The translations under genes were made by a program, and so were the position numbers. Positions 1,507-50,535 of a DNA stretch of 51,843 bases are shown here, piece by piece. The DNA is taken from IMG/VR virus record IMGVR_UViG_2851949629_000002; one strand, given 5' to 3'. This DNA is from a virus (taxonomy: Duplodnaviria; Heunggongvirae; Uroviricota; Caudoviricetes). Under the pieces are notes generated by a model. That model was not told the DNA's origin and did no database searches. It was given only the letters and a program-made list of their open reading frames with translations. The number at the start of each line of letters is the position of its first letter. Position 1 is the stretch's first letter.

Positions 1507-2088
1507 TTACCCTATAGGTGCTACTGGCCATTCAATATCCGGTGCAGTTGTTGTATTAACACGGTTCAGCAACACCCGATACTTCTTCCATGCTTCCAGC
1601 AACGAGATTTCTTCCTCCGTTGCGATTTCCAGATCTACAGCATCCTGAAGTGGCGCAATATGCTCACTGGCTACCTGCATCAGGCTGTTTTTTGTTTCTT
1701 CCGCCTCCCGGATCCGGAACAGTTTTTCTGCTTCCGTATCCTTCACCCAGGCTGTGCCGTTCCACTTCTGAAACTCCCCTTCCGGCGATAACCAGGTAAC
1801 ATTTTCCGGTAACGGACCGAGTTCAGAAATAAATAACGCGTCCCCTGACGCTACGTCATAAACCGTTTTACCCCGATGGTCTTCAACGAGATGCCACGAT
1901 GCCTCATCACTGTTGAAAACAGCCACAAAGCCAGCCGGAATATCTGGCGGTGCAATATCGGTACTGTTTGCTGGCAGACCTGTATGAGGCGGAATATATG
2001 CGTCACCTTCACCAATAAATTCATTAGTTCCGGCCAGCAGATTATAAATTTTTATGGTCCGTGGTTGTTCACTCATTCTGAATGCCAT
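1507..2088 (-). CDS. tfa: Tail fibre assembly protein Tfa (lambda-like)
   Basis: 193-aa ORF beginning [24 protein letters not shown], near-identical to lambda Tfa as recalled; overlaps stf stop. Confidence 0.9.
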
Positions 2089-5000: not shown

Positions 5001-5495
5001 AGCGGCCTGTCCGGCTGACGTGCTGGCTGCGCGTGCTGAGCCTGCAGCATCAGTCGCATGGGTTGCCGCCTCACGGGCAGATGTGCCGGCATCGCCGGCT
5101 GACTTCTTCGCGGCTGCCGTGTTCTGTGCCACCGCGGACGCGTTACGCGCCACCTCTTCCAACATCAGTTCAAAACGGCGCAGAGCCTCCGGACGGGCAT
5201 CCTCCTCCGTCATGGCACCGAGAAAATCATTCAGCGTACCGGGTCGGGAATCTTCATACACGGTGATGGTCCCGGCATGTGACGGCGGGAACCCTTCCAC
5301 CAACAGAATAACGCTGTACTGACCGTACTCAACGTCCATGCTGTAACGCCCGGCTTCATCCGGATTTTCTGAGGCCAGCGTGTTCACCACCACCGTGGTG
5401 CTGTTACGTTTTGCTTTCAGCTGGATTGTGCAGTTCTGTACCGGTTTTCCTGTGCCGTCTTTCAGTACACCTGAAATCTTTACTGCCATATTCAC
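2088..5495 (-). CDS. stf: Side tail fibre protein Stf, mosaic (lambda-like N- and C-terminal parts, different central domain)
   Basis: 1135-aa ORF; N-terminal ~400 aa incl. Ala/Ser-rich repeats and C-terminal GAHxHS repeats match lambda Stf as recalled; central ~500 aa do not. Confidence 0.85.
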
Positions 5496-5553
5496 CCCAC
5501 AAAAAAGCCCGCCTGAACCGGCGGGCTGTCATAACACTGTGTTACCTGGCTAA

Positions 5554-6153
5554 TCAGAATTTATAACCGACACCCACGATGAAACCGTCAGTGCGCCAGT
5601 CACCACTGCCGGAGCCTTCATAAGCAATATCAATGGCCACGGATTCGGTCGGGTTAAACTGCACGCCAGCCCCCCACGCCAGAGACGTGTTGCTGTGGCG
5701 ACCGTCATCACTTCCGGTCAGCACGTCGTGCGTTTTCCCCTTGTTGTCAGTTACGCGGAGATAATCCCCGGAGAAAGTCGAAACACGGCTGTAAGCCATA
5801 CCCGCCATCGCATACGCGCTGAACCATTCATTCACGCGCACAGACGGCCCCGCCATCACGCTGAACCAGCGGTTACGCACTGAATCTTCATGCCAGCGGG
5901 TATCGCTGTAACGGGTAAGCTGGCGATTCTTGTCTCCTGCATAGCTGAATGACGTCACCAGCCCCAGTGTGTCCGTAAACTCATAACGGTATTTCACGTT
6001 AATCCCGTTAAGATCATCGCTGCCGGGAACGTTCGTCAAGGCATGAAGATACCCCGCGCTCAGCGTGGACTGATGTTCAGATGCCCATGCAGGCGCACCG
6101 GATACGGCCAGACAAATGGCTGCGGACAAAATGGCGGCATAAAGTTTACGCAT
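5554..6153 (-). CDS. lom: Outer membrane protein Lom
   Basis: 199-aa [27 protein letters not shown]... with signal peptide; matches lambda Lom as recalled. Confidence 0.9.
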
Positions 6154-6222
6154 AATTACCTCTCGCTTTTCTGCAATAAAAAAGGCACCATTTCTGGTGC
6201 CCTTATATGGGTTATAACAATT

Positions 6223-9200
6223 TCAACGAATACTGATGCCGGAAGCGGCTTTTTTGGTCACAATCACCGTACAGTCGGTGATATTACCTGCCCACTGATT
6301 GCCTTTATGGAAAACCTTAAACTCCAGAGTGACGCTTCCCCTGCCACTCGGCATATCAATAACCGCACTGTAGCTACCGGGAATAGCCCCTTTAGTTTCT
6401 CTGGATGCGATTAATACACCGTTTTTGCGAACTTCAAAACCATAACCCGTGTATCTTGTACCTCCCGGGTTATTACCACTTCCCGGATCGCTATACGCTA
6501 TTCCGTTAAAGATAATGGGCGGAATAATGATTTGACGGTCAAAGTTATGATCATCGCTTATGGTGACTGTAACCGTCCCGTTTGGTGTTTCCGTGTTACC
6601 CCACGTACCAGCCTGTTTCGGGAATGATTTGGATACAGCTTTAACGAAGTCACCTCTGACCTGAGTCGCCTCCAGCATGCCCTTAATCGTACAGTTTTCA
6701 TTTACCGTGACATTGTTGAGCGTCCCGGCGTTCGCATTCACACTGCCACTGATATCCGCATTTTTAGCGGTCAGCTTTCCGTCCGGAGTCAGGGAAAATG
6801 CCGGTGGATTTCCACCGCTGGTAATGGTGGGGGCCGTCAGGCGTTTCAGGAACACGTCGTTCATGAATATCTGATCGCCCTGACCAACAAACATCGGTTT
6901 TGTGTTGCCATTCGCAGGATTAACCATCGCAATCCTGTCCGCCGCCAGCAGCACCTGACTCTGCATGCCGTCAGGGGTGTTCTCAATACCGGCACCAATA
7001 CCCGCGATATAAAGGCGTCCGTCCTGCATCTGCTGCAGCTTCACAGCCCACATGCTGTTCAGGTTATTATTTGTATCAACCTGAACCTTCTGTATCTGCT
7101 GAATTGCCGCACTCTGGTCTTCCAGTTTCTTATTGACGGTCTGCGTGATTTCATTGCTGACATCCGTAATGGACGTCCTGATTTCAGCCAGGTCAGGCGC
7201 AAGCTGACCGTTATCAATCTGCGTCCACAGCTCCTGAGCCAGATGGGTTTTCCCTATCTCGCCTTTGAAAAAATCCAGATAACCGGATGCATCATCACTC
7301 GGCTGACCAACAGCCTCCACGAATGCCGATTTGCCAACGGTGTTCACACTGCGGATATAAAAGTAATAATCATGGCCCGGTTTGATATTGATACTGGCGG
7401 CTATCCAGTACAGCGCCGTGCCAAGATAGCGTGCTGTGGTTTCAACCTGCCTGATATCCGCAATCCGCTTTTCCGAGAACCAGAACTCAAACTGTACCGT
7501 CGGGTCATAAACAGCAAGATGCGGCGTGGCGGTTATCTGAAAATAGCCCGGCGTCAGCTCAATCCTCGACGGTGCTGCCGGTGCGGCAATCCGGAACGAT
7601 ACCGACGCCGGATCACCCTGCTGCCCCCGGGCATTTACCGCCCGGACTGTCAGCCTGTAGTTCCCCAGCGCCAGTTGCGTGAAGCGGTATGTGGTTTCCG
7701 TCGTCCGGGCCGTGCTGACCAGCCGCTCACTGCCGTCGTCCGCTGTTACGGTCAGACGGAGCAGGAAGCTCACGCCCTTCACCACCTTCGGTGTGTCCCA
7801 TCGCGCCAGCACCTGGTATTCCCCACTGTCTGCGGTGACTTCTGCGGTCAGGTGCTGCACCGCTGGCGGCGTGACACCATTCACCGTGCCGCTCTGGTCG
7901 CCGTCAAAGTGCGCCCCGTTATCCACGATGGCTTCTTTTTCCGGTACATGCTGCACGGCGGTGATGGCATACGTGCCGTCGGCGTTCTCACGGATACTCA
8001 CGCAGCGGAACAGGCGCTGGCGCAGCGTCGGCAGCTTCAGCCCCCACACGCTGTATTCAGCAACGCCGTCAGGAACACGGCTCACTTTCACCTTCACGCC
8101 GTCGGTGACGGACTGAACCTCCACGCTGACCGGATTGCCACTTCCGTCAACCAGGCTTATCAGCGTGGTACCGGAGGATGGCAGCGTGATTTCACGGTCG
8201 AGCGTCAGCGTCCGGGTCTGGCTGTTTACCGCCAGCACGCGCCCGCCGGTGCTGATACCGGCATAGTCATCATCACAGATTTCAATGACATCGCCCGGCA
8301 CATGGCGAAGCCCTTCGGCACCCACGCTGAAGTCCACGGTCTGCGTTTCCAGCAGTTCTGTTTTAATCAGCCACAGCCCGGCTCGGTGCGCCTGCCCCCG
8401 ACTGGTACAGCCAAACGCATCCATCTTCGTGACGTTACGACCGTAACGGGCAATGGCCTGCGAGTCCTCCACAAGCTCTGTTGCCGTCTCCCAGCCGTTA
8501 TCCGGGTCAATCCAGTTCACCTCAACGGCATTATGGCGGTCTTTCAGGGCGCTGAAGCTGTAGCGGAACGGCGCGCCATCATCCGGCATCACCACATTAC
8601 TGCGGTTATAGGTCCACACCTTATCCGACGGTCGGTCCTGCACGAACGTCAGCGTCTGCCCGTTCCATACCGGCATACAGCGCATCGCCGAGCAGAAATC
8701 ACTGAGCACATCCCACGCCTTACGCTGTGTGGTCAGGTACGCATTACAGGTGATGCGCGGCTCCGTGCCGCCAAAGCCGTCCGGCACTGACTGGTCGCAG
8801 TACTGGCCGATGACATACAGCGCCCATTTGTCCACATCCGCCGCACCAAGACGTTTCCCCATGCCGTAGCGTGGATGGGTCAGCATATCCCACAGACACC
8901 AGGCCATGTTATTGCTGTATGCTGGCTTAAACGTTCCGTCCCAGATACCGCTGTATTGCCGCGTCTGCGGGTTATAGTTCGACGGCACCTGCAGAATACG
9001 CCCGCGCAGATGATAATTACGGCTCACCTGCTGGCTGCCGAACTGCTCCGAGTCCACCTGCACGCCGACCAGTGCCGTGTTCGGGTAGCACTGTTTCACA
9101 TCGATGATTTCGGTGTATGACGACCAGAGCGTTTTGTTCTGCAGCTGGTCTGTGGTGCTGTCCGGCGTCATCCTGCGCATCCGGATATTAAACGGGCGCG

Positions 9201-9654
9201 GCGGCAGGTTATCCACCACCACCGAGGCCAGATACTGCGAGGTGGTTTTGCCCTTAATGGTGATGTCTTTTTCCGTCACCCAGCCACCGTTACGTTGTAT
9301 CTGAACCAGCAGGCGGACTTCCGATGGATTCCTGTCCCCCTTTGAGGTGGTTTCCACCAGTGCCTGCACGCCGAAAGTAAAACGCAGACGGTCAATGTTT
9401 GCCGACGTGATGGTCCGGGTGATCGGCGTGTCATATTTCACTTCTGTACCGAGCACCGTCTCGGAGCCGGAGGATTCAAATCCCTCCGGCGGTGTCTGCT
9501 CCTGCTCACCGGCCCGGAACACCACCGTGACGCCGGAGATATTGGTATTCCCCTCACTGTCCAGCACTGGCGTACTGTTCAGCAGCACGCTTTTTAATCC
9601 ATCCACCGGACCTTCAACCGGCCCTTCGCTGATGGCATCGATCACACTCAGCAA
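6223..9654 (-). CDS. J: Tail tip host-specificity protein J, in-frame body; native ATG (9717-9719) is out of frame because of a 1-nt deletion near codon 8; C-terminal receptor-binding region differs from lambda J
   Basis: Track ORF starts at a TTG; upstream ATG GGT AAA GGC AGC AGT AAG GG encodes MGKGSSKG then shifts frame and stops after 17 codons, while the +1 frame continues [26 protein letters not shown]. Confidence 0.8.
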
Positions 9655-25340: not shown

Positions 25341-25766
25341 ATGGAAGGTACTACAATGGCTCAGGTTGCCATTTTTAAACAAATATTCGATAAAGTGCGA
25401 AATAATTTAAACTATCACTGGTTTTATTCTGAACTAAAACGTCACAATGTCTCACATTACATTTACTATTTAGCCACAGAGAATATTCATCTTGTTCTTG
25501 AAAACGATAATACGGTTTTAATAAAAGGACAGGGTAAGGTTGTAAATGTAAGATTTTCAAAAAATAAATGCCTTATAGAAGCCACATTAAAAGGATTCAA
25601 ATCAGGAGAGTTATCATTTTACGAATACAGGAAAAATCTTGCTACAGCAGGAGTTTTCAGATGGATTACAAATATCCACGAAAACAAAAGGTATTACTAT
25701 ACCTTTGATAATTCATTACTCTTTACTGAGAACATTCAGAACACTACACAAATATTTCCGCACTAA
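25341..25766 (+). CDS. Hypothetical phage protein (possibly DUF1398/YbcV-like)
   Basis: 141-aa ORF directly downstream of the RHH gene; family assignment from memory is weak. Confidence 0.45.
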
Positions 25767-26444: not shown

Positions 26445-26969
26445 TTAATAGCCATCAGAAGTAATCGCTACAGATTTCAATCCCTCAATGTCATCCTTGG
26501 ACAGGGCGAACCATTCACCGTGCTTTCTCTTTGCGGCAAATTTGCGATGAAGCATGTTTTCAGTTTCTCTTCCACCAGGGATCAGGCACTCAAGCTTCAA
26601 GCAGTCTGGTCCAGAGTTGCCAAGCGATTTGATGCGTTGTGGAATGTTGGATGAATACCCAATTTTGGTTAGCCCAGTTTTCTTCGATGACAAAACGTAT
26701 ACCTGAGGAGGTTCTTTTCTCTGGTCTTCCATTACACGTCTCATTGTTGCCATAAGTCCGCCGTGCATCAGCATTTCAACAAAGAACGCTGACCGAACAC
26801 CTGACGACTTAAGCATGCCAGAAAATTCACTTGCCAATTCCATTAACTCTGCGATGTTTTCAGGAACTTTTTGGCAGTTATCTTCCTTGTATAAGGAAAT
26901 CATTCTTTGAAGCTTTTCTTCTAATTGGTTCATAGCGTCTTTACCTTTTAGAAAGTGAGCCTGTCTCAC
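26445..26969 (-). CDS. T5orf172 (GIY-YIG-like) domain protein, moron
   Basis: 174-aa ORF; C-terminal VYVLSSKKTGLTKIGYSSNIPQRIKSLG...ENMLHRKFAAKRKHGEWFAL fits the T5orf172/MUG113 motif pattern as I recall it; sits where lambda carries bor. Confidence 0.55.
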   Translation of the reverse strand: MRQAHFLKGKDAMNQLEEKLQRMISLYKEDNCQKVPENIAELMELASEFSGMLKSSGVRSAFFVEMLMHGGLMATMRRVMEDQRKEPPQVYVLSSKKTGLTKIGYSSNIPQRIKSLGNSGPDCLKLECLIPGGRETENMLHRKFAAKRKHGEWFALSKDDIEGLKSVAITSDGY

Positions 26970-27138: not shown

Positions 27139-27609
27139 TTATTTCAGGCATTGCGTCCTGATGTATTCCTGCAGGTAGTTAACCTGCGCGGTTATCTTGT
27201 CGATTCCACTTCGGAGACGGTAATAATTGAGTTCAGCATCTGCTGTAAGTCCTGGGCTTTCTCCATCGCCCATGCCGCTGGCTCCGGTCGTTGACTTTGC
27301 ACAGGTGGCGGCGACTTGCAGGCGCTTACGCCCAGCAGAAACATCAGCACGGAGACTTTCGATAGTCGCGTTAGCATCAGCAAGCTCCTTTGTGTATCTT
27401 GCGTCGAGTTCTGCTACATCACGTTGACGCTTCCGCATGTCAGCGATGGTGGCGTTCGCCTTCTCCAGTTCACTGGCCTTGTTATCGCGCTGCTCCTTGT
27501 AGGCGATTGCGTTATCACGGTAATGATTAACAGCCCATGACAGGCCGACGATGATGCAGATAACCAGAGCGGAGATAATCGCGGTTACTCTGTTCATTGC
27601 TGACCCCAC
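27139..27609 (-). CDS. Rz: Spanin inner-membrane subunit Rz (i-spanin)
   Basis: 156-aa ORF with N-terminal TM helix and coiled-coil, after endolysin. Confidence 0.85.
27192..27383 (-). CDS. Rz1: Spanin outer-membrane lipoprotein Rz1 (o-spanin), embedded in Rz in the +1 frame
   Basis: 63-aa ORF with lipobox LLGVSAC and Pro-rich mature region. Confidence 0.8.
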
Positions 27610-28091
27610 AAACAGATTTCACGCTCAATCTCACGACGAGTCATGAGACCTTTCCATTGCTTACCGCCAGCATATGTCCAGCGACGTAGCTGATCACATG
27701 CGCCTTTGATATCGCCCTGGTTTATTTTGCGAAGAAGCGTCGATGTTCTGAAATTGCCAGCACCCACGTTGTAAACGAATGAGTAAAGAGCGCCGCGCAT
27801 TGTTTCCGGTATATCGACTTTGATGTACGGGTTAATTTGTCTGGCGACCGTGGCAAGGTCTTTATTCAGGAGGGCTTTGCATTCTGCTTTGGTATACGTT
27901 TTACCGAGCATGATGTCTTTTCCTGTATGCCCGTGACATACAGTCCATACACCAACAATATCTTTGTATGGTATGTAGCTGACACCTTCCAGACCATCGT
28001 TACCACTTGGGCCAGTGATTAACACTGATGCTATAGCAATTGCTCCGCCACCAATAGCAGCAGCAACGGCTTTTCGTAATGATGGAGGCAT
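27594..28091 (-). CDS. R: SAR endolysin (phage 21 R21-type lysozyme)
   Basis: 165-aa ORF with Gly/Ala-rich N-terminal signal-anchor-release segment and lysozyme-like body; phage 21/DLP12-like, not lambda R. Confidence 0.85.
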
Positions 28092-28306
28092 TATTCACCT
28101 CTCGCAGCCTTGCGCTTATCTTCTTTAATCTTGAAATAAAGGTTTGTCAGGTACGTCAGCAGGCCAAATACCAGGCTACCCAGCACACCTATTGCTGCCC
28201 ACTGTGAGGGCGTGACTTTATCGAGCAGCTGTAAAAACCAGTAACCGGCACTACCTGCTGAGGTGCCATAGGCGACACCCGTTGTTAACTTATCCATGGA
28301 TTTCAT
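28091..28306 (-). CDS. S: Pinholin (S21-type holin)
   Basis: 71-aa [34 protein letters not shown]... matching the phage 21 pinholin as recalled. Confidence 0.85.
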
Positions 28307-28878
28307 AACCCCACCTCGCAGACAAAGCGGGTGTAAATTGAGGGAATACTACGAAACGTAACAGACTCGGAGTCAGTGAATAACTCAGGTATTGGGTTAT
28401 CAGCTAATATCGAGACTCAAAAAATGGAAAAACCCGCTCGACGGCGGGTTTAAGCTGTGTGACGAAGTAACCACTCTTAACAGCATAACCAATTTTTTAC
28501 GTACGTAAACCACTAAATGATATTTGCGAGAATGCTACCGAGTATTGAAAACACCACTACAAATACATAAGCAAATCTCAACAAATAACCAACAAATAAT
28601 TTCCAGTGTTATTTTTAGCCGGTTTAAATTGAACCTTCAAATTATAGAGCACTTATAAATAACAGCCGTTAATATAAATTGGCTAATAGATTTATTTTTA
28701 TTCAGCCAAGAGCCATGAATAGGATTCGATAGAAAAAAGTTCAGATAAAAATAGAGATCTACTTCACAAATCAAACGAGAAACCAAAACTTACATCTTGA
28801 AATAATCACATTGATTAGATGAATATTTATCGCGCAGTGACATCATTTTTTAATAATAGTTCAAAAAAAGGGCTCACG

Positions 28879-29976
28879 ATGAAAAAATTAACAGTGGCAA
28901 TTTCTGCTGTAGCTGCATCAGTACTGATGGCGATGTCTGCTCAGGCAGCTGAAATTTATAATAAAGACAGTAACAAGCTGGATCTGTACGGGAAAGTTAA
29001 TGCTAAGCACTATTTCTCCTCTAATGATGCAGATGATGGTGATACTACTTATGCCCGTCTTGGCTTCAAAGGTGAAACCCAAATCAACGATCAACTGACT
29101 GGTTTCGGTCAGTGGGAATATGAATTCAAAGGCAACCGCGCTGAATCTCAAGGTTCCTCCAAAGATAAAACCCGTCTTGCCTTCGCTGGCCTGAAATTCG
29201 GTGACTACGGCTCCATCGATTACGGCCGTAACTACGGTGTAGCATACGACATCGGTGCGTGGACTGACGTCCTGCCAGAATTCGGTGGTGACACTTGGAC
29301 TCAAACCGACGTGTTCATGACTCAACGTGCAACTGGTGTTGCAACCTATCGTAACAACGACTTCTTTGGTCTGGTTGATGGTCTGAATTTTGCTGCTCAG
29401 TACCAAGGCAAAAACGATCGTAGCGATTTCGATAACTACACTGAAGGTAACGGTGATGGCTTCGGTTTCTCTGCTACCTATGAATACGAAGGATTCGGTA
29501 TCGGTGCAACTTATGCGAAATCTGATCGTACCGACACTCAAGTTAATGCAGGGAAAGTTCTTCCTGAAGTATTTGCTTCCGGTAAAAATGCAGAAGTTTG
29601 GGCCGCAGGTCTGAAATATGACGCTAACAACATTTACCTGGCCACTACCTATTCTGAAACCCAGAATATGACTGTATTTGCTGATCACTTCGTTGCTAAT
29701 AAAGCCCAAAACTTCGAAGCTGTTGCACAATATCAGTTCGATTTCGGTCTGCGTCCGTCCGTTGCTTACCTGCAATCTAAAGGTAAGGATCTTGGAGTAT
29801 GGGGCGATCAGGACTTAGTCAAATATGTTGATGTAGGTGCAACCTATTACTTCAACAAAAATATGTCTACTTTCGTTGATTACAAAATCAACCTGCTTGA
29901 CAAAAATGACTTCACTAAAGCACTCGGTGTAAGCACTGATGACATCGTTGCTGTAGGTCTGGTTTACCAGTTCTAA
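28879..29976 (+). CDS. OmpC-family porin (Lc/NmpC-like), lysogenic-conversion gene
   Basis: Track ORF starts at 28819; likely start is [23 protein letters not shown] signal peptide; 16-strand porin motifs, ends YQF. Confidence 0.85.
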
Positions 29977-29992
29977 TCTGATTACGAAAAAG

Positions 29993-30026
29993 ATATGTTG
30001 CGGGAGGCGTTGCCTCCCCAACATAT
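29993..30026. terminator. Long GC hairpin between convergent porin and late transcription units; candidate tR'-type terminator for minus-strand reads
   Basis: ATATGTTGCGGGAGGC-GTT-GCCTCCCCAACATAT extended stem; T-run follows on the minus strand. Confidence 0.35.
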
Positions 30027-30112
30027 AAGTGGCTCCCTCAAGCCACTTCCTTTAGAAGCACAACCTTGCTTCTAACTATATAAACCTTCTGTTATATATT
30101 ACCCTTTATTTT

Positions 30113-30140
30113 TGGGGGCGTCTCAACGCCCCATTTTTAA
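30113..30140 (+). terminator. Rho-independent terminator, probably for the porin gene
   Basis: GGGGCG-TCTCAA-CGCCCC hairpin followed by ATTTTTAATAATTTTT. Confidence 0.45.
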
Positions 30141-30165
30141 TAATTTTTAGTAAACAATTGGCATA

Positions 30166-30564
30166 TTAATTAGAGTTATTAACAACGATATCCATCTCTA
30201 ACCGGATATCTAATGCCATTAACATCCCTTCAATTATACCCTCAGCCTTCTGTAACCTTTTCCCGATATAACCATCAGAGCAGCAATGCTTACCTGCCAG
30301 TGACATGAATGTCATACCGACTACATAATAATCTACTAATAAATCGTGCAAATCGCTGTTGTTCTTTTTCAGACGGGCCATGCACCCGCAAATGATCATC
30401 GCGTCATCGTCACAACATTGCGGGCGAGATTTTACTTTTGAAGTAATTAATCCCTTAAAACCGGCGGCAATGGACGACCAGGTCACATCTTCATGATTAT
30501 TAGCCGCCCACGCTCCCCAACGCTCAAGAACCATCTGAATATCACGCATCAACTTACTCCACAA
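30166..30564 (-). CDS. Q: Late antiterminator Q (phage 21/DLP12 QuuD-type)
   Basis: Contains [34 protein letters not shown]..., DLP12 QuuD as recalled; true start may be the internal Met (~30549). Confidence 0.8.
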
Positions 30565-30634
30565 AAATCAGACCAGAACGCCAATTACAAGCAAAAATCA
30601 ACAAAACAGTATTAGTTGATTGTTATCTCTGACT

Positions 30635-30757
30635 TCATACTCCTGCTCCTGTCAGGGTTTTGGCGTAATTCTTCAGTATTCGGTAATCGGTCAAAACAGA
30701 ACCGGGGAAACGATATAAGCGCAGACGCCCCCAGCGGTGGCGAAGAAGTTCTGCCAT
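30635..30757 (-). CDS. Small protein, YlcG-like (40 aa)
   Basis: ATG ORF MAELLRHRWGRLRLYRFPGSVLTDYRILKNYAKTLTGAGV between rusA and Q, below ORF-track cutoff. Confidence 0.5.
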   Translation of the reverse strand: MAELLRHRWGRLRLYRFPGSVLTDYRILKNYAKTLTGAGV

Positions 30758-30771
30758 ATTAAACTCAAACA

Positions 30772-31134
30772 TCATTCATTCCCCATTTCGGTGATGGTCA
30801 GTTCCAGCCTCCCACCTTTGGTAACAGGCATCTTCACAACGCGGTAATCAACGACCTGAGCATCATCCAGCCAGAAACCTGCTTTGGTGAGTGCGTCAAA
30901 AGAGGCTTTTTGCAGATTATCCAGGTCACGGCGACGGCGATCCGGCATGTGGCACTCAATGCGGATTTTCACAGGCATAGCCAGGCCGATATCCAGCATT
31001 GCGTTTTTAATGATTCGGGCGACGTTATCGCAGTATGCCTGCCCCTCTGCGCTAACGTGCGTGCGCCCGCGATTATGGCGGTAATAGCGATTATTGCTCG
31101 GAGGCCAGGGTAATGTGATGCTGTAGGTATTCAC
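30772..31134 (-). CDS. rusA: Holliday junction resolvase RusA
   Basis: 120-aa [37 protein letters not shown]..., DLP12 RusA as recalled; GTG start. Confidence 0.9.
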
Positions 31135-31262
31135 GCCTTAATAACCCCCTCTTTCAGCCAGATAACCTGTGTTCTCGCCATACCTTCCAGCGCGCATTCT
31201 TTTGCATATGCAGCATCGACTTGCTTGGCATGCCCTTTACCGGCAATCTTCTGTATGCGCTA
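31131..31262 (-). pseudogene. YbcO-like (DUF1364) C-terminal remnant without a start
   Basis: Frame encodes ...[25 protein letters not shown], preceded by an in-frame TAG; N-terminal half absent. Confidence 0.45.
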
Positions 31263-31340
31263 AACCTAGATAGAATCCACTCTGTGCACATTGAAGCCCG
31301 CTCTATGCTTCCTTTCAGGTATTGAAGGGATTGAGATGGG

Positions 31341-31688
31341 CTAAGCATTATTGGCCTCCTGCATCAGGAGAAAGACAATCATGGCGGCGCGGAGAGGTCT
31401 GGCATCAAATATTGGGCTTACGCCTTTTGCATCCACACACCATTCAGTTAACTGGTCTAAGATAGAAATCCTGTATTTCTCAATAATCGGCCATGAAGCG
31501 CTCGGATCATTGCAGTAGTCAGGCAAATGATTTAATAGCTCAAAAGTTGTATCAGCATTTCCGTAATACCATTTGTTGGTGTTATTCCCTGATGTTTCCG
31601 GTTTACTTGCCCAAAGGCCTTTAAAAATTATGTCTCCTACCATTCTGTTAATTTCAAAATCACTTAACTGTGAATAATCCATTGTCAT
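31341..31688 (-). CDS. Hypothetical nin-region protein
   Basis: [29 protein letters not shown]..., start overlaps ninE stop (ATGA). Confidence 0.5.
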
Positions 31689-34336: not shown

Positions 34337-34366
34337 GTAAGCGTCAACGGAGCACCGTATTGACGC

Positions 34367-35720
34367 TTATTTATTAGTGAGTACTACGTTCCATGGCAGG
34401 AGTTCGTCAACTCGGTTGGAAGGCCATTCCGGCAGTACGCTCAGGATATGGCGCAGATACGCTTCCGGATCGATACCATTCAACCGGCAGGTGCCGATCA
34501 GCCCGTACAACAGTGCACCACGCTCGCCGCCGTGATCGCTACCGAAGAACACGTAATTTTTCTTTCCGAGACAGACTGCACGAAGCGCTCTTTCCGCTGT
34601 GTTATTGTCCGCCTCCGCCAGACCGTCATCACAGAAGTTGCACAACGCAACCCAGTGCTTCCTGATATACCGGAACGCATCTCTCAGACGGCATTTTTTC
34701 GATAACGTGTGTTCTTTCTCCTGCATCAGCTTATACAGGGAAGTCAGTAGCGGTTTACTCTGCATTTGCCTGACCGCCAGGCGTTCAGACACCGGCAACC
34801 CGCGTATTTCGTGCTCAATGGCGTACAGTTCACTGATTCGCTTCAGGGCTTCTTCTGCCGTCGCACTTTTGCTGCTGATGTATACATCGTGGATTTTTCG
34901 CCGGGCATGGGCCCAGCACGCAACTTCTGTCAGTGCACCACCTTCACGTTCTGCACTGAACAACCTGTCGTAACCTGTGAACGCATCTGCCTGCAGGATA
35001 CCCCGGAAGGGACGAAGGTGTTGCTCCGGATGTTTACCCTGATGGTCCGGTGAGTAGGCGAACCAGACCGCCGGAGGTTCTGGCGAACCGGCATTTCGGT
35101 CATCCCGGACATACGTCCAGATATATCCTGTTTTCGCCTTCTTCCTGCCCGGTGCCAGTACTTTTACTGGTGTGTCATCAGTGTGAACCTTGCGGGTGTT
35201 CATCACATAACTGTACAGGGCATCATTCAGCGGAGTCATTAACTGGCAGCACGCATCAACCCAGTTGGAGAGTAAGGCACGGCTCAGTTCGACACCCTGG
35301 CGGGCAAAGATTTCACTCTGACGATACAGTGGCAGGTGTTCGCAGTATTTTCCCGTTAACACGCGGGCAAGTAACCCCGGGCCCGCGATACCACGCTCTA
35401 TCGGACGGGATGGTGCCGGTGCTTCAACGATGCAGTCACATTTTGTACAGGCTTTTTTTACCCGTTCTGTGCGGATCACTTTCAGGGCGCTGCTCACCAG
35501 CTCCAGTTGTTCTGCGCTGACTTCCCCCAGATAATCCAGCTCACCGCCACACTCCGGGCAACAGCTTTCTTCTGGCTCCAGGCGGTATATTTCACGGGGG
35601 AGATGTGCCGGTAACGGACGACAATGGCGCGACTGTCGCAACTGGCGGGGAACCAGCGGGTCATCCTCACGCCCACTGTAACGATCGCTTTCCTGCTCGC
35701 GTTGTTTCAGCAGGACTTCA
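34367..35720 (-). pseudogene. Outer IS66 transposase TnpC, C-terminal ~440 codons, separated from its N-terminus by the inner IS
   Basis: ORF continues ...LLKQREQESDRYSG upstream to the inner-IS junction; ~90% similar to the intact inner TnpC. Confidence 0.8.
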
Positions 35721-35813
35721 GCCTGTTCGTAAGCGTAAACTGACCGCCGTATGTAGCCATCAGACGAGAATTGGTAACTTAGACGCCCATCTGATATAGA
35801 CGGACATCTAAGT

Positions 35814-36239
35814 ATGGAATTACAGGACTGGCGAAAAGAACCTCGTAAAAACTATTCGAATGAATTCAAACTTCGTATGGTGGAACTGGCATCACAACCT
35901 GGAGCTTGTGTTGCACAGATTGCACGTGAAAATGGCGTCAATGATAATGTTATTTTCAAATGGCTCAGGCTCTGGCAGAACGAAGGGCGTGTTTCGCGGC
36001 GTCTTCCGGTAACGACCTCTTCTGACACTGGCGTTGAATTATTACCTGTAGAAATAACGCCGGATGAGCAGAAAGAACCTGTGGCGGCCATTGCGCCGTC
36101 TTTATCCACTTCCACTCAGACCAGAGTCAGTGCCAGTTCCTGCAAGGTGGAATTCCGTCACGGTAACATGACGCTGGAAAATCCATCGCCAGAGCTGCTC
36201 ACAGTGTTGATCCGTGAACTGACCGGGAGGGGAAGATGA
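35814..36239 (+). CDS. IS66 accessory protein OrfA (TnpA)
   Basis: 141-aa ORF, first gene of the IS66 three-gene arrangement. Confidence 0.8.
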   Translation: MELQDWRKEPRKNYSNEFKLRMVELASQPGACVAQIARENGVNDNVIFKWLRLWQNEGRVSRRLPVTTSSDTGVELLPVEITPDEQKEPVAAIAPSLSTSTQTRVSASSCKVEFRHGNMTLENPSPELLTVLIRELTGRGR

Positions 36240-36586
36240 TCTCACTCCCATCAGGTACCCGTATCTGGCTCGTTGCCGGCGTTACCGATATGCGTAAATC
36301 CTTCAACGGACTGGGAGAACAGGTACAACATGTGCTGAATGATAATCCCTTCTCCGGTCACCTGTTTATCTTCCGTGGCCGACGGGGTGACACCGTCAAA
36401 ATTCTTTGGGCTGATGCTGATGGTCTGTGCCTGTTCACCAAACGCCTGGAGGAAGGCCAGTTTATCTGGCCTGCGGTACGTGACGGCAAGGTATCCATTA
36501 CCCGCTCGCAACTGGCAATGCTCCTCGATAAGCTGGACTGGCGTCAGCCAAAAACATCCAGCCGTAACTCACTGACAATGTTGTAA
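36236..36586 (+). CDS. IS66 accessory protein OrfB (TnpB)
   Basis: 116-aa ORF MISLPSGTRIWLVAGVTDMRKSFNGLGEQ... overlapping orfA stop. Confidence 0.85.
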   Translation: MISLPSGTRIWLVAGVTDMRKSFNGLGEQVQHVLNDNPFSGHLFIFRGRRGDTVKILWADADGLCLFTKRLEEGQFIWPAVRDGKVSITRSQLAMLLDKLDWRQPKTSSRNSLTML

Positions 36587-36616
36587 AAAACTCCTGACCG
36601 CATTATAAAAACGGTC

Positions 36617-38230
36617 ATGAGTCAGAAATACCTCATTCGCATCGCAGAGCTGGAAAGGTTGCTCTCTGAGCAGGCTGAAGCCCTCCGTCAGAAAGACCAG
36701 CAACTGAGTCTGGTTGAAGAGACGGAAGCCTTCCTGCGCTCTGCACTGACACGTGCCGAAGAAAAGATCGAAGAAGATGAACGGGAAATAGAACATCTGC
36801 GGGCTCAGATAGAAAAACTGCGCCGGATGCTGTTCGGTACCCGTTCTGAAAAACTGCGTCGTGAAGTTGAACTGGCTGAGGCTCTGCTGAAACAACGTGA
36901 ACAGGACAGCGATCGTTACAGTGGGCGGGAAGACGATCCTCAGGTTCCCCGCCAGTTGCGACAGTCGCGCCATCGTCGTCCGTTACCGGCACACCTTCCC
37001 CGTGAAATACACCGCCTGGAGCCAGAAGAAAGCTGTTGCCCGGAGTGTGGCGGTGAGCTGGATTATCTGGGGGAAGTCAGCGCTGAACAGCTGGAACTGG
37101 TGAGCAGTGCCCTGAAAGTGATCCGCACAGAACGGGTAAAAAAAGCCTGTACAAAATGTGACTGTATTGTTGAAGCACCGGCGCCGTCCCGCCCGATAGA
37201 GCGTGGTATCGCGGGCCCCGGATTACTTGCCCGCGTGTTAACGGGAAAATACTGCGAACATCTGCCACTGTATCGTCAGAGTGAAATCTTTGCCCGCCAG
37301 GGTGTCGAACTGAGCCGGGCCTTACTCTCCAACTGGGTTGACGCGTGCTGCCAGTTAATGACACCGGTGAATGATGCCCTGTACCGTTATGTAATGAACA
37401 CCCGCAAGGTTCACACTGATGACACACCGGTAAAGGTACTGGCACCGGGTCAGAAAAAGGCGAAAACAGGGCGTATCTGGACGTATGTCCGGGATGATCG
37501 CAATGTGGGTTCGTCATCTCCTCCAGCGGTCTGGTTCGCGTACTCGCCGAACCGGCAGGGGAAACACCCGGAGCAACACCTCCGCCCCTTCCGGGGTATC
37601 CTGCAGGCGGATGCGTTCACAGGTTACGACAGGTTGTTCAGTGCAGAACGTGAAGGTGGTGCACTGACAGAAGTTGCGTGCTGGGCCCATGCCCGGCGAA
37701 AAATCCACGATGTATACATCAGCAGCAAAAGTGCGACGGCAGAAGAAGCCCTGAAGCGAATCAGTGAACTGTACGCCATCGAGGATGAAATACGGGGATT
37801 ACCGGAGTCAGAGCGTCTTGCCGTCAGGCAGCAGCGAAGCAAAGTGTTACTGACGTCGCTGCATGAATGGATGGTGGAGAAGAATGGTACGCTGTCGAAA
37901 AAATCCAGACTGGGCGAAGCGTTCAGCTATGTACTGAATCAGTGGGATGCCCTCTGTTATTACAGTGATGACGGTCTGGCGGAGGCGGATAATAATGCTG
38001 CGGAAAGAGCGCTTCGTGCAGTCTGTCTCGGAAAGAAAAACTTTATGTTCTTCGGCAGCGATCACGGCGGCGAGCGAGGAGCACTGTTGTACGGGCTGAT
38101 CAGCACCTGCCGACTGAACGGTATCGATCCGGAAGCGTATCTGCGCCATATCCTGAGCGTACTGCCGGAATGGCCTTCCAACCGAGTTGACGAACTCCTG
38201 CCATGGAACGTAGTACTCACCAATAAATAA
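36617..38230 (+). CDS. IS66 transposase TnpC
   Basis: 537-aa ORF with N-terminal coiled-coil, CxxC zinc motifs and DDE-type core. Confidence 0.85.
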   Translation: MSQKYLIRIAELERLLSEQAEALRQKDQQLSLVEETEAFLRSALTRAEEKIEEDEREIEHLRAQIEKLRRMLFGTRSEKLRREVELAEALLKQREQDSDRYSGREDDPQVPRQLRQSRHRRPLPAHLPREIHRLEPEESCCPECGGELDYLGEVSAEQLELVSSALKVIRTERVKKACTKCDCIVEAPAPSRPIERGIAGPGLLARVLTGKYCEHLPLYRQSEIFARQGVELSRALLSNWVDACCQLMTPVNDALYRYVMNTRKVHTDDTPVKVLAPGQKKAKTGRIWTYVRDDRNVGSSSPPAVWFAYSPNRQGKHPEQHLRPFRGILQADAFTGYDRLFSAEREGGALTEVACWAHARRKIHDVYISSKSATAEEALKRISELYAIEDEIRGLPESERLAVRQQRSKVLLTSLHEWMVEKNGTLSKKSRLGEAFSYVLNQWDALCYYSDDGLAEADNNAAERALRAVCLGKKNFMFFGSDHGGERGALLYGLISTCRLNGIDPEAYLRHILSVLPEWPSNRVDELLPWNVVLTNK

Positions 38231-38256
38231 GCGTCAATACGGCACTCCGTTAACGC

Positions 38257-38520
38257 TTACGCCTGTTCAACCTCACTACGCAGTTTTTCAGAACGGGTTC
38301 CGAACAGCATCCGGCGCAGTTTTTCTATCTGAGCCCGCAGATGCTCTATTTCTCGCTCATCTTCTTCGATCTTTTCTTCGGCACGTGCCAGTGCAGAGCG
38401 CAGGAAGGCCTCCGTCTCTTCAACCAGACTCAGTTGCTGGTCTTTCTGACGGAGGGCTTCAGCCTGCTCAGAGAGCAGCCTTTCCAGCTCAGCGATGCGA
38501 ATGAGGTATTTCTGACCCAT
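38257..38520 (-). pseudogene. Outer IS66 TnpC N-terminal fragment (87 codons)
   Basis: MGQKYLIRIAELERLLSEQAEALRQKDQQL... ends at the inner IS junction. Confidence 0.8.
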
Positions 38521-38550
38521 GGCCGTTTTTATAATCCGGCCCGGCGTTTT

Positions 38551-38901
38551 TTACAACATTGTCAGTGCGTTAAGGCGGGATGTTTTTGGCTGACGCCAGT
38601 CCAGCTTATCGAGGAGCATTGCCAGTTGCGAGCGGGTAATGGATATCTTACCGTCATGCACCGCAGGCCAGATAAACTGACCTTCCTCAAGGCGTTTGGT
38701 GAACAGGCACAGACCATCAGCATCAGCCCACAGGATTTTAATCGTGTCTCCCCGTCGGCCACGGAAGATAAACAGGTGACCGGAGAAGGGGTTATCATCC
38801 AGCACATGCTGTATCTGCTCCCCCAGACCGTTGAAGGATTTACGCATATCAGTAACGCCGGCAACGAGCCAGATACGGGTACCTGATGGGAGTGAAATCA
38901 T
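38551..38901 (-). CDS. Outer IS66 OrfB (TnpB)
   Basis: 116-aa ORF ~90% similar to the inner orfB. Confidence 0.8.
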   Translation of the reverse strand: MISLPSGTRIWLVAGVTDMRKSFNGLGEQIQHVLDDNPFSGHLFIFRGRRGDTIKILWADADGLCLFTKRLEEGQFIWPAVHDGKISITRSQLAMLLDKLDWRQPKTSRLNALTML

Positions 38902-39335
38902 CGTCCCCTCCCGGTCAGCTCACGGATCAACACCGTGAGCAGCTCTGGTGAAGGATTTTCCAGCATCATTTTACCGTAATGGAATTCCACATGGCAGGAA
39001 GCTGCACAAGCAACTGATAATGCCTCCGGAGCAGGAGCATCTGTAGCACAGCGCGGGGTGTCGATAAGTTCCACTGGAACCAGAGTCGGAGAGGCCGGAA
39101 AAGATTGTGATACTGTAGGGCCTACAATAGTTGGAGGCATTCTACGAGAAATACGTCCTTCTCTTTGCCAGAGGCGTAGCCATTTAAAAATCAGGTTGTT
39201 ATCAACGCCATGTTCCCGGGCCAGTTGTGCAACATTGGCATTTGGTTTCGAAGCCAGTTCAACCATATGAAGTTTAAATTCATTAGAAAATATCCGGCGG
39301 GTTCCGGAGCGCCAGTCTGTAGGTTTATCCATCAA
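38898..39335 (-). CDS. Outer IS66 OrfA (TnpA)
   Basis: 145-aa ORF, diverged homologue of the inner orfA. Confidence 0.75.
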   Translation of the reverse strand: MMDKPTDWRSGTRRIFSNEFKLHMVELASKPNANVAQLAREHGVDNNLIFKWLRLWQREGRISRRMPPTIVGPTVSQSFPASPTLVPVELIDTPRCATDAPAPEALSVACAASCHVEFHYGKMMLENPSPELLTVLIRELTGRGR

Positions 39336-39415
39336 TAGAACTCCGTCTAATTTAGAAGGAGCTCTAATTTAGTCTGCAAGGAGCAAGTGTTACAGACGGC
39401 ATTGGCTTTACGCTT

Positions 39416-39869
39416 ACGTAATAGTGTCTTTTGTGTCCCCCTGTTTTGAGGGATAGCAATCCCCCAATTTGAGGGATGTTTTATCCCTCGTTTTAGGGGA
39501 TTGTCCCTCGTTTTGAGGGATACACCATTCTGAGATGTTTTTATTTGGTCCAAACATGCCGCCTTGCTGCTTGATAATATTCATTCTGACGAGTTCTAAC
39601 TTGGCTTCATTGCACCGTTTGACAGGTAACTTTGTAATCTCGCTAAGTTGAGAATCGGTGATTCTGTCCATTGGTTTATTCCACCCATAGGTTTTACGCA
39701 GAATGGCAAGCAGCACTTTAAACTGTCGCTTGGTCAGATCTGCGCCCGAATAAGCCTCAAGCAGCATATTTGATAGTCTGGCGTAACCATCATCGAGATC
39801 TGCCACATTACGCTCCTGTCCGGCAAAGTTACCTCTGCCGAAGTTGAGTATTTTTGCTGTATTTGTCAT
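39416..39869 (-). pseudogene. O: Replication initiator O, N-terminal fragment
   Basis: MTNTAKILNFGRGNFAGQERNVADLDDGYARLSNMLLEAYSGADLTKRQF..., lambda O N-terminus; reading frame runs into the IS. Confidence 0.85.
39436..39521. repeat. ori-lambda iterons (four ~18-bp O-binding repeats)
   Basis: Four copies of TCCCTC-N6-GAGGGA-like inverted units inside the O N-terminal coding region. Confidence 0.8.
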
Positions 39870-44197: not shown

Positions 44198-44269
44198 GTG
44201 CGGCTTTACCGCATACCAATAACGCTTCACTCGAGGCGTTTTTCGTTATGTATAAATAAGGAGCACACC

Positions 44270-44410
44270 ATGCAATATGCCATTGCAGGGTGGCCTGTTG
44301 CTGGCTGCCCTTCCGAATCTTTACTTGAACGAATCACCCGTAAATTACGTGACGGATGGAAACGCCTTATCGACATACTTAATCAGCCAGGAGTACCCAA
44401 AAATGGATAA
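44270..44410 (+). CDS. cIII: cIII (FtsH inhibitor)
   Basis: [46 protein letters not shown] with AAGGAG RBS. Confidence 0.85.
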   Translation: MQYAIAGWPVAGCPSESLLERITRKLRDGWKRLIDILNQPGVPKNG

Positions 44411-50425: not shown

Positions 50426-50535
50426 TGATTTTATTTTGACTGATAGTGACCTGTTCGTTGCAACAAATTGATAAGCAATGCTTTTTTATAATGCCAACTT
50501 AGTATAAAAAAGCAGGCTTCAACGGATTCATTTTT
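50426..50535. other. attL: Prophage attL (P' arm, 15-bp core at 50499-50513, bacterial B arm)
   Basis: Reverse complement contains GCCTGCTTTTTTATACTAAGTTGGCATTATAAAAAAGCATTGCTTATCAATTTGTTGCAACGAACAGGTCACTATCAGTCAAAATAAAATCATTATT, i.e. lambda core GCTTTTTTATACTAA with P' arm. Confidence 0.85.

Follow-up and report, generated by a model that had tools for sequence, protein, structure and literature searches.

The Q–porin–lysis module carried by the prophage described here is already known and is not new: the module, its porin, the regulator in the porin 3′UTR and the lysis genes have been under study since the 1970s–2000s. In DLP12, a cryptic prophage of E. coli K-12, the order is quuD – nmpC::IS5 – essD – rrrD – rzpD/rzoD. 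Phage PA-2 has the lc locus (GenBank J02580), which encodes the lysogenic-conversion porin Lc, or 'protein 2'. The late region of phage 21 reads Q21 – pR′ – tR′ – tRNAs – S21 R21 Rz Rz1 – bor; it contains two tRNA genes and no porin. Late control in 933W follows the order Q933W – pR′ – qut – tR′ – tRNAs – stx2 and is the source of the StxS short RNA. There the end of Q and the promoter overlap, and stx2, the cargo, belongs to the late operon, downstream of the promoter.

We compared these systems with the corresponding block of a prophage of 51,843 nt (IMG/VR record IMGVR_UViG_2851949629_000002; the whole stretch is called the window below). The features of the block are collected in Table 1.

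Identity of the block

Lambda aligns to ∼31.9 kb of the prophage at 92–99% identity (heads, tails, cos, immunity, O/P, red and int/att), in agreement with the lambda background proposed in an earlier note on this DNA. No lambda alignment was found across 27598–31687. The gene content, coordinates and orientation given in that note, including an OmpC-family porin gene on the opposite strand between Q and the holin, are confirmed by the open reading frames and by Pfam (PF00267 for the porin).

Table 1. Coordinates of the late-control, porin and lysis features in the window
Feature	Position	Strand	Basis or detail
Q antiterminator, quuD allele (DLP12/933W family)	30166–30549	−	PF06530, E 4e-53
Intrinsic terminator of the porin, 3′ end of the 3′UTR	30115–30148	+	terminator-like site in scan
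Porin 3′UTR with four hairpins, = ipeX region of DLP12/PA-2	29977–30148	+	sequence identity and fold
Intact OmpC-family porin gene (lc/nmpC), 365 aa	28879–29976	+	PF00267 full length, E 6e-157
AT-rich putative porin regulatory region and 5′ leader	28511–28878	+	33% GC
σE-type promoter of the lysis operon, candidate	28830–28862	−	motif read from sequence: GAACTA 28862–28857, 16 nt, TCACT 28840–28836, +1 A28830
Predicted Q-dependent late promoter pR′	28482–28509	−	−35 TTTACG, 16-nt spacer, −10 TATGCT, start near 28475
tR′, predicted intrinsic terminator	28419–28451	−	8-bp GC-rich stem and U-tract; terminator scan, fold, alignment with 933W
Class II pinholin/antiholin	28091–28306	−	PF04971 'P21 holin S', E 2e-35
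SAR endolysin (GH24 lysozyme), R21	27594–28091	−	PF00959
Rz i-spanin	27139–27597	−	PF03245
Rz1 o-spanin lipoprotein, embedded in Rz in another frame	27192–27377	−	PF06085, E 2e-20; lipobox VSAC

Two alignments suggested as checks in the earlier note were carried out. Against DLP12 (quuD-nmpC-essD-rrrD), order and orientation are the same, and identity is 100% for Q (127/127 residues of K-12 QuuD), the holin (71/71 of EssD), porin codons 1–346 (346/346 of the K-12 NmpC fragment upstream of IS5) and the ipeX spacer, with 99% for the endolysin (163/165 of RrrD). Whereas nmpC of DLP12 holds IS5, the porin gene here lacks it and is intact. Against PA-2 lc, the porin is identical at 361 of 365 residues (99%), leaving four amino-acid differences. 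The PA-2 upstream region is 94% identical, with a 16-nt length difference, and both CRP sites, the pR′-like element and the same flanking lysis genes are present, within a comparison limited to the 2.8 kb of the PA-2 record. The spacer between Q and the porin (29940–30200) is identical to K-12 and 434B at all 261 positions and to PA-2 over the common part (100%), and the porin control region matches K-12 at 614/616 positions (99.7%). Direct observations are these identities, the arrangement of the block and the promoter-element homology discussed below.

The earlier note described the late genes as being of the phage 21/DLP12 type. This holds for the DLP12-type, non-lambda Q and lysis DNA and, as regards phage 21, for the holin (86% identical to S21) and the endolysin, which equals phage 21 R (PDB 3HDE) at 165/165 residues. 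A dual start of the holin can be read from its MKSM motif (Met1 and Met4, S71/S68), and the pinholin plus SAR-endolysin lysis strategy is common to phage 21 and this prophage. The label fits neither Q nor Rz/Rz1. Q is of the same family as 933W Q (PF06530, 78% identity), while the Q21 structures 6P18 and 6JNX match it only at E 7e-7, over 80 residues; judged by these alignments, it is of the DLP12/933W type, with Q21 only a distant relative. In the ORF list the Q frame extends to a TTG at 30564. Rz shares 59% identity with both DLP12 RzpD and phage 21 Rz, and Rz1 is 39% identical to RzoD, so that the spanins are not of the rzpD/rzoD type of DLP12. Positions 27139–27400, which comprise distal Rz and Rz1, are 99–100% identical to Chlobot, mEp234, HK75 and HK022, and lambda similarity within Rz ends at 27328. 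From its alignments Rz is a mosaic, with an N-terminal third like that of lambda, 21 and DLP12 and a joint near 27328–27400; its C-terminal two thirds and all of Rz1 are of the HK022/P22 type. Rz is followed by a GIY-YIG nuclease gene here and by borD in DLP12.

The module was found in 2117 of 5426 complete E. coli genomes (∼39%) and in 34 phage records (≥80% coverage). Relatives of Q in IMG/VR number at least 598, of which the best 80 are identical; a survey of those 80 therefore covers identical alleles only and upholds the geometry without new gap lengths. Taken together, the block is very probably a classical qsr′-type late-control and lysis block, of the same allele as DLP12 (quuD-nmpC-essD-rrrD) and PA-2 (lc) and uninterrupted, in a prophage with lambda immunity and lambda morphogenesis genes, with the porin in the gap between Q and pR′.

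Position of the late promoter

Between the porin and the holin, at 28509–28419, lies an element resembling a pR′, qut and terminator, with 77–78% identity over 83 nt to the element annotated in 933W. It is the sole non-coding element common to the Q-to-S intervals of this prophage, Lambda_ev087 and PhiR40_1, and it is also kept in SfIV and PA-2. Among phages with a QuuD-like Q it is conserved despite different cargo and even different holins. Within the best 80 of the at least 598 IMG/VR loci, the pR′ motif occurs as a single copy per locus, co-oriented with Q and ∼1.65 kb after it, in 75. The predicted tR′ lies ∼25–55 nt downstream of the predicted pR′ start.

Late transcription might instead begin directly downstream of Q, where pR′ lies in lambda, phage 21 (in which pR′ with its QBE adjoins Q21) and 933W, and then cross the ∼1.9-kb porin cassette antisense before reaching the holin. 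Consistent with such a start, the late strand has no strong terminator after Q, and a short 9-nt motif, ATATAACAG, is found right after Q in both K-12 and Lambda_ev087. However, the 190 nt after Q consist of the porin's own terminator and the ipeX 3′UTR, no promoter-like site was found in them by scan or by eye, and they have no segment in common with PhiR40_1 or SfIV. The 933W-like promoter and terminator element is situated after the porin, and the published DLP12 lysis promoter fragment begins only 73 nt inside the porin ORF. With the motif shared with Lambda_ev087 and nothing shared with PhiR40_1 or SfIV, we rejected a main late promoter at this site and regard it as highly improbable.

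Because the only shared element homologous to the 933W pR′, qut and terminator is at 28509–28419, and the DLP12 lysis promoter region maps there too, late transcription probably begins downstream of the porin and proceeds in the direction away from that gene. These data argue against the statement in the earlier note that late transcripts must read through the porin antisense. The pR′ hexamers are weak (each 4/6, with a 16-nt spacer), and a simple σ70 scan flagged no late-strand promoter in the region, these hexamers included; the assignment accordingly leans on homology. Its basis is homology together with conservation, the element having no mapped start site, and the 933W record labels its own pR′, qut and terminator features 'putative'. 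For the Sakai Stx phages, a second terminator 258 nt farther downstream is regarded as the main tR′ (PMC7547250), and hence the first hairpin may be neither the sole terminator nor the principal one; compared with 933W, only the first hairpin precedes the holin here.

Antisense transcription of the porin could arise in another way. The terminator scan found no convincing late-strand terminator after Q, so N-antiterminated pR transcripts that make Q would run antisense into the porin. Such read-through may occur during lytic growth.

The DLP12 lysis operon is stated in the literature to be under Q control (PMC7918800). A σE-type promoter may also serve this operon. The primers Pdlp12Fw/Rv of that paper map to 28951 and ∼28181, a span of 771 bp. 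The DLP12 promoter fragment is given there as '−121 to +650', counted from the start site that it credits to Rueggeberg 2015 (PMC7918800). As the primer span fits this range, the mapping puts the published RpoE-dependent +1 at 28830.

The porin cassette

The porin covers Porin_1 (PF00267) in full, at positions 1–337 of 337. A Sec signal peptide is encoded at 28879–28947, the C-terminus reads ...VYQF, with an aromatic last residue, and OmpC/OmpK36 structures match the whole mature chain (E 1e-137). From this likeness the protein would form a trimeric, 16-stranded β-barrel diffusion pore.

A CRP site annotated in the PA-2 record (J02580) maps by exact match to 28751–28771, in the porin regulatory region, and a second one overlaps the first 20 transcribed bases of the predicted pR′. 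We speculate that the latter could couple carbon status to late or lysis transcription. The ipeX 3′UTR is strongly structured (−63.4 kcal/mol, z = −9.5). Rfam searches, at the gathering threshold over the whole window and in E-value mode over 28250–30250, matched neither the ipeX region nor the short pR′ RNA to a family; Trp_leader and SNORD123 appeared only as sub-threshold chance matches.

Two further reading frames in the cassette were considered and set aside as genes. A 285-aa antisense ORF (28918–29775) is an artefact of codon bias: its frame is exactly complementary to the porin codons, and only 3 of 366 sense codons (TTA twice, TCA once) can give antisense stops. The other, a 69-aa 'ORF1' (29815–30024), is annotated in PA-2 and has an equivalent hypothetical CDS in 434B.

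Expression and role of the porin

In K-12 NCM3722, intact NmpC makes up ∼2% of the proteome and becomes more abundant when carbon is limiting, while the level of OmpC is >10-fold below that of MG1655 (PMC8144880). For DLP12 and PA-2, IpeX is described as produced with the porin transcript and as repressing ompC and ompF. The tail tip gene J (6223–9654) encodes a C-terminus 82% identical to that of 434 J and 51% identical to that of lambda J; on this comparison the J tip is 434-type. OmpC is the target of 434 J (PMC12502783). Since the porin and its 3′UTR would lower OmpC and OmpF, and OmpC is used by 434, whose type of J tip this prophage has, a lysogen might adsorb the same or similar phages less well. 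Lysogenic conversion or exclusion by the porin is thus plausible, and it is already documented for PA-2, IpeX and, by proteomics, NmpC. The proposal in the earlier note that the porin alters the outer membrane of the lysogen is supported, yet it restates known biology (PA-2 Lc, NmpC, IpeX).

The porin might chiefly serve host fitness, as a general diffusion pore when growth is limited by carbon, with phage exclusion incidental and the cassette persisting for the benefit of the bacterium. The role of NmpC as a major carbon-limitation porin of K-12 NCM3722 (PMC8144880) speaks for this, as do the prevalence of the module in ∼39% of complete E. coli genomes and its retention in defective prophages such as DLP12 and in the present one with its broken O gene. 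This gene is split by IS66 elements, so any benefit of the cassette to the phage itself may be moot. Against a purely bacterial benefit, the co-occurrence of an OmpC-type J tip with the porin, the OmpC-repressing 3′UTR and the PA-2 precedent all fit receptor-level exclusion, and the two roles are not mutually exclusive. We regard a mainly bacterial role as a distinct possibility, although not a probable one. AT-rich DNA is typical of H-NS-silenced genes, and the region upstream of the porin is only 33% GC. The gene could then be quiescent in this strain under ordinary conditions, leaving the cassette without a phenotype; nmpC of E. coli BE is called a 'quiescent' porin gene, at least in a title cited in PMC3333887. 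Silence is nevertheless unlikely here: the porin ORF, leader and control region are all intact, and the DNA hardly differs from the K-12 allele, which without IS5 is expressed abundantly. For this strain we infer that the promoters are active, that the porin is expressed and that it excludes phages, and we favor a porin that is expressed and may contribute to exclusion.

Discussion

On the late strand, the block runs from Q through a 1.65-kb inverted porin cassette and the candidate σE-type promoter to the predicted pR′-qut-tR′ unit cognate to Q, followed by the pinholin, the SAR endolysin and Rz/Rz1. In the same direction the cassette consists of its terminator, the structured ipeX 3′UTR, the lc/nmpC ORF and the CRP-associated, AT-rich control region. 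In the lysogen, the porin would be transcribed from its own putative promoter, as suggested by identical DNA studied elsewhere. The porin and its 3′UTR RNA would lower OmpC and OmpF, with less OmpC the same phage and similar ones would adsorb less well, and the cassette would also supply a carbon-limitation porin. PR′ of Stx phages is constitutive (PMC7547250). By analogy, pR′ would fire in the lysogen and halt at tR′, giving a short RNA of ∼50 nt. Upon induction, Q made from pR transcripts would load onto polymerase at pR′, and the Q-loaded polymerase would pass tR′ into S-R-Rz/Rz1, across cos and into the head and tail genes. With the porin in the gap between Q and pR′, the late operon would not include it, and antisense transcription across it would come only from early pR transcripts that read past Q.

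The distance between Q and the promoter sets this prophage apart from phage 21 and 933W. In phage 21 the two adjoin, whereas here the promoter-like element is 1.65 kb from Q; the window contains no tRNA. In 933W the promoter, initial transcribed region and terminator are homologous to those found here, but the present locus has 1.65 kb of inverted cargo between Q and pR′, which would place the cargo outside the late operon. Gaps in this family range from 0 nt (933W) to nearly 3 kb, and their contents differ: the porin and ipeX in this prophage, the lipocalin Blc and a same-strand DUF1722 gene in Lambda_ev087, and genes of unknown function in PhiR40_1 and SfIV. One tentative and rather doubtful reading is that the Q-to-pR′ gap in the QuuD/933W Q family is a recurrent insertion slot for cargo genes, which mostly, though not always, lie on the opposite strand.

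As a discovery the block carries little weight. Roughly four of every ten sequenced E. coli have it. Its value is for annotation: the prophage combines lambda immunity and an OmpC-type tail tip with a porin cassette, Lc/NmpC, that is intact. The place to annotate the late promoter is probably the porin–holin interval, not a site beside Q. With the promoter there, a gene expressed in the lysogen could be located 'inside' the late region and yet escape transcriptional conflict, and comparable Q-to-lysis intervals of other lambdoid prophages can be read by the same rule. If the gap is indeed a cargo slot, its genes would be active in the lysogen and shielded from late transcription, in contrast to stx, which is placed after pR′.

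Position of the late promoter

An intact OmpC-family porin gene lies opposite to and between Q and the holin, as the earlier note had stated. Its further claim, that late transcripts must read through the porin antisense, is most likely wrong, because a 933W-like pR'/terminator element sits between porin and holin. We compared the Q-to-holin intervals of the window, PhiR40_1 and Lambda_ev087, whose QuuD-like Q genes share 82–88% nucleotide identity. The cargo is entirely different among the three, and the only non-coding element in common is a block of ~83 nt in the window and PhiR40_1, of which Lambda_ev087 has the first ~41 nt, the promoter part. In a sensitive search, this block was 77–78% identical to the 933W segment annotated as pR', qut and terminator, which in 933W lies at the end of the Q gene. 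The hexamers of the predicted pR' are weak. In Shigella phage SfIV, whose Q is 52% identical, 60 nt of the element, from the -10 to the terminator, are present at 95% just 5' of a different, lambda-S-type holin, again past opposite-strand genes. Judged by sequence, the promoter–terminator element goes with the Q family and not with the holin.

In IMG/VR, the window Q has at least 598 relatives. Among the loci of the best 80, all with an identical Q, 75 contain exactly one copy of the core pR' motif, oriented like Q and mostly ~1.65 kb from the Q stop (~3 kb in one); the other five are mostly too short downstream. Independent agreement on position comes from PMC7918800, where the DLP12 lysis-operon regulatory region was cloned 'from -121 to +650', counted from the start site of Rueggeberg et al. 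2015. Mapped onto the window, those primers fall at 28951 and ~28181, spanning 771 bp, and back-calculation from them puts the RpoE-dependent start at A28830. A candidate sigmaE-type promoter precedes this base, back-to-back with the porin 5' leader. Neither a promoter scan nor the interval comparison revealed a conserved or consensus promoter in the 190 nt after Q, which belong to the porin as its terminator and 3'UTR. Because the shared element and the A28830 start lie after the porin and no promoter directly follows Q, the porin cassette (28511-30165) most likely separates Q from pR' and is not part of the late operon. Antisense crossing would be left only to early pR transcripts continuing past Q.

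Both CRP sites annotated in the PA-2 record are conserved; one of them, CTGTGTGACGAAGTAACCACT, overlaps the initial ~20 bases of the RNA expected from the predicted pR', within the block that 933W shares, and may serve CRP, Q loading or both. For the Stx phages of Sakai, a second terminator 258 nt further downstream is regarded as the functional tR' (PMC7547250).

Two long ORFs run antisense to the porin. That of 285 aa (28918-29775, -) was rejected as a gene: its frame is exactly complementary to the porin's, in which just 3 of the 366 codons can produce a stop on the other strand, making it an artefact of codon bias. The 69-aa ORF (29815-30024, -) is 'ORF1' in the PA-2 annotation; its equivalent in 434B is a hypothetical CDS.

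Features of the prophage and its late module
Feature	Coordinates	Strand	Identity to K-12 DLP12	Basis or remark
Tail and head genes	~1500 to 24700	-		gene content
cos	24865/24866
DUF1398 (ybcV-like) gene	25341-25766	+		between GIY-YIG nuclease gene and cos
GIY-YIG/T5orf172 nuclease gene	26445-26969	-		follows Rz
Rz	27139-27597	-		ORF and Pfam scans
Rz1	27192-27377	-		ORF and Pfam scans; embedded in Rz
GH24 endolysin	27594-28091	-	163/165	ORF and Pfam scans
Class II holin	28091-28306	-	71/71	ORF and Pfam scans
Hairpin and U-tract	28451-28419	-		8-bp GC-rich stem, ~25 nt past promoter motif
CRP site	28455-28475			PA-2 annotation
Predicted pR'	28509-28482	-		TTTACG, 16-nt spacer, TATGCT
~83-nt shared block	28510-28428	- (late)		between porin and holin
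CRP site	28751-28771			PA-2 annotation
Candidate sigmaE-type promoter	28830-28862	-		GAACTA-16-TCACT; A28830 (+1) six bases after motif
Porin–holin intergenic region			614/616
OmpC-family porin	28879-29976	+	346/346	ORF and Pfam scans; every codon before K-12's IS5
End of Q to end of porin			261/261	261 nt
Q	30166-30549	-	127/127	ORF and Pfam scans
IS66-family insertion	34339-39417	both		5.08 kb; tnpA/tnpB/tnpC sets
att core	50499-50513			int end; adjoins pectinesterase-domain (ybhC-like) gene

Origin of the late module

In reverse orientation, the window comprises almost an entire lambda-like prophage; beyond cos come lysis genes, Q, nin region, O/P, lambda immunity, red genes and int. Alignment with lambda covers ~31.9 kb of it at 92–99% identity, and the whole-window comparison gave none in 27598-31687. 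With this stretch unaligned amid such DNA, it is correct to speak of a foreign late module in a lambda background. The lambda att core occurs once, the other prophage junction lying outside the window, and positions 1-1525 have no lambda match. Gathering-level Rfam matches were IS009 (1547-1745, -, 229 bits), within the tail-fibre-assembly gene region, and the lambda cIII thermoregulator element (44257-44315, +).

Q, the holin and the porin up to IS5 are all identical to DLP12, as the proposed alignment confirmed, and the porin matches Lc of PA-2 at 361/365 residues, with the same gene arrangement in the original 1986 record (J02580). Of 5426 complete E. coli genomes, 2117 have the block at ≥80% coverage, as do 34 phage records, among them that of 434B, where DLP12 DNA has replaced the late region (PMC9119081). 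In almost all respects, the module had been described before.

The proposed phage-21 type held for the endolysin, identical (165/165) to the crystallised phage 21 enzyme (3HDE), and for the holin, 86% identical to S21, and failed for Q and Rz/Rz1. Against Q21 structures, Q scores no better than E 7e-7, and it is 78% identical to Q of Stx phage 933W; on these comparisons it is not phage-21-like. In phage 21 (OL657228), unlike the window, pR' and QBE directly follow Q21, and the order thereafter is terminator, two tRNA genes, S21, R21, Rz/Rz1 and bor, without a porin; the window has no tRNA genes. The place after Rz, held by bor in lambda, 21 and DLP12, is taken by the GIY-YIG nuclease gene. Rz is only 59% identical to its DLP12 and phage 21 counterparts, and Rz1 only 39% to DLP12 RzoD. 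The N-terminal third of Rz is lambda/21/DLP12-like, and its distal two thirds with all of Rz1 are 99–100% identical to HK022, HK75 and mEp234 (the HK022/P22-type allele), which puts a mosaic joint inside Rz near 27328-27400. An exchange there evidently keeps Rz1 with the interacting Rz C-terminus, swapped as a pair.

Role of the porin cassette

The role of the cassette is deduced from studies on DNA of the same sequence. Its 172-nt 3'UTR (29977-30148) is very strongly structured (z = -9.5) and identical to the K-12 ipeX region, whose RNA represses ompC and ompF (PMC12197685, PMC5069750). In K-12 NCM3722, whose nmpC lacks IS5, NmpC makes up ~2% of the proteome, more under carbon limitation, and OmpC is >ten-fold below MG1655 (PMC8144880). 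The C-terminal 300 aa of the window J (6223-7125) are 82% identical to phage 434 J (near-identical distally) and 51% to lambda J; 434 J targets OmpC (PMC12502783). Because this receptor-binding end is 434-type, it suggests OmpC, not LamB, as the prophage receptor. Receptor-level exclusion through replacement of OmpC by Lc is the classical account for PA-2. If J targets OmpC and OmpC is lowered or replaced by Lc/NmpC, exclusion would fit here; a host benefit under carbon limitation would fit equally.

The prophage is probably replication-defective, since nested IS66-family elements split the lambda O gene/ori region; lambda alignment restarts beyond them with a ~10-bp overlap (lambda 39128-39137). 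The porin may now serve the host alone.

Other phages whose Q is QuuD-like also carry genes between Q and the pR'-like element: in Lambda_ev087 (4550-6347), an opposite-strand lipocalin gene, Blc, and a same-strand DUF1722 gene; in PhiR40_1 (4466-4912) and SfIV (1531-3450), uncharacterised opposite-strand genes. The one mildly new angle on this module is that phages of the QuuD/933W Q family seem to use the Q-to-pR' gap repeatedly as a site for cargo that is expressed in the lysogen and mostly on the opposite strand.
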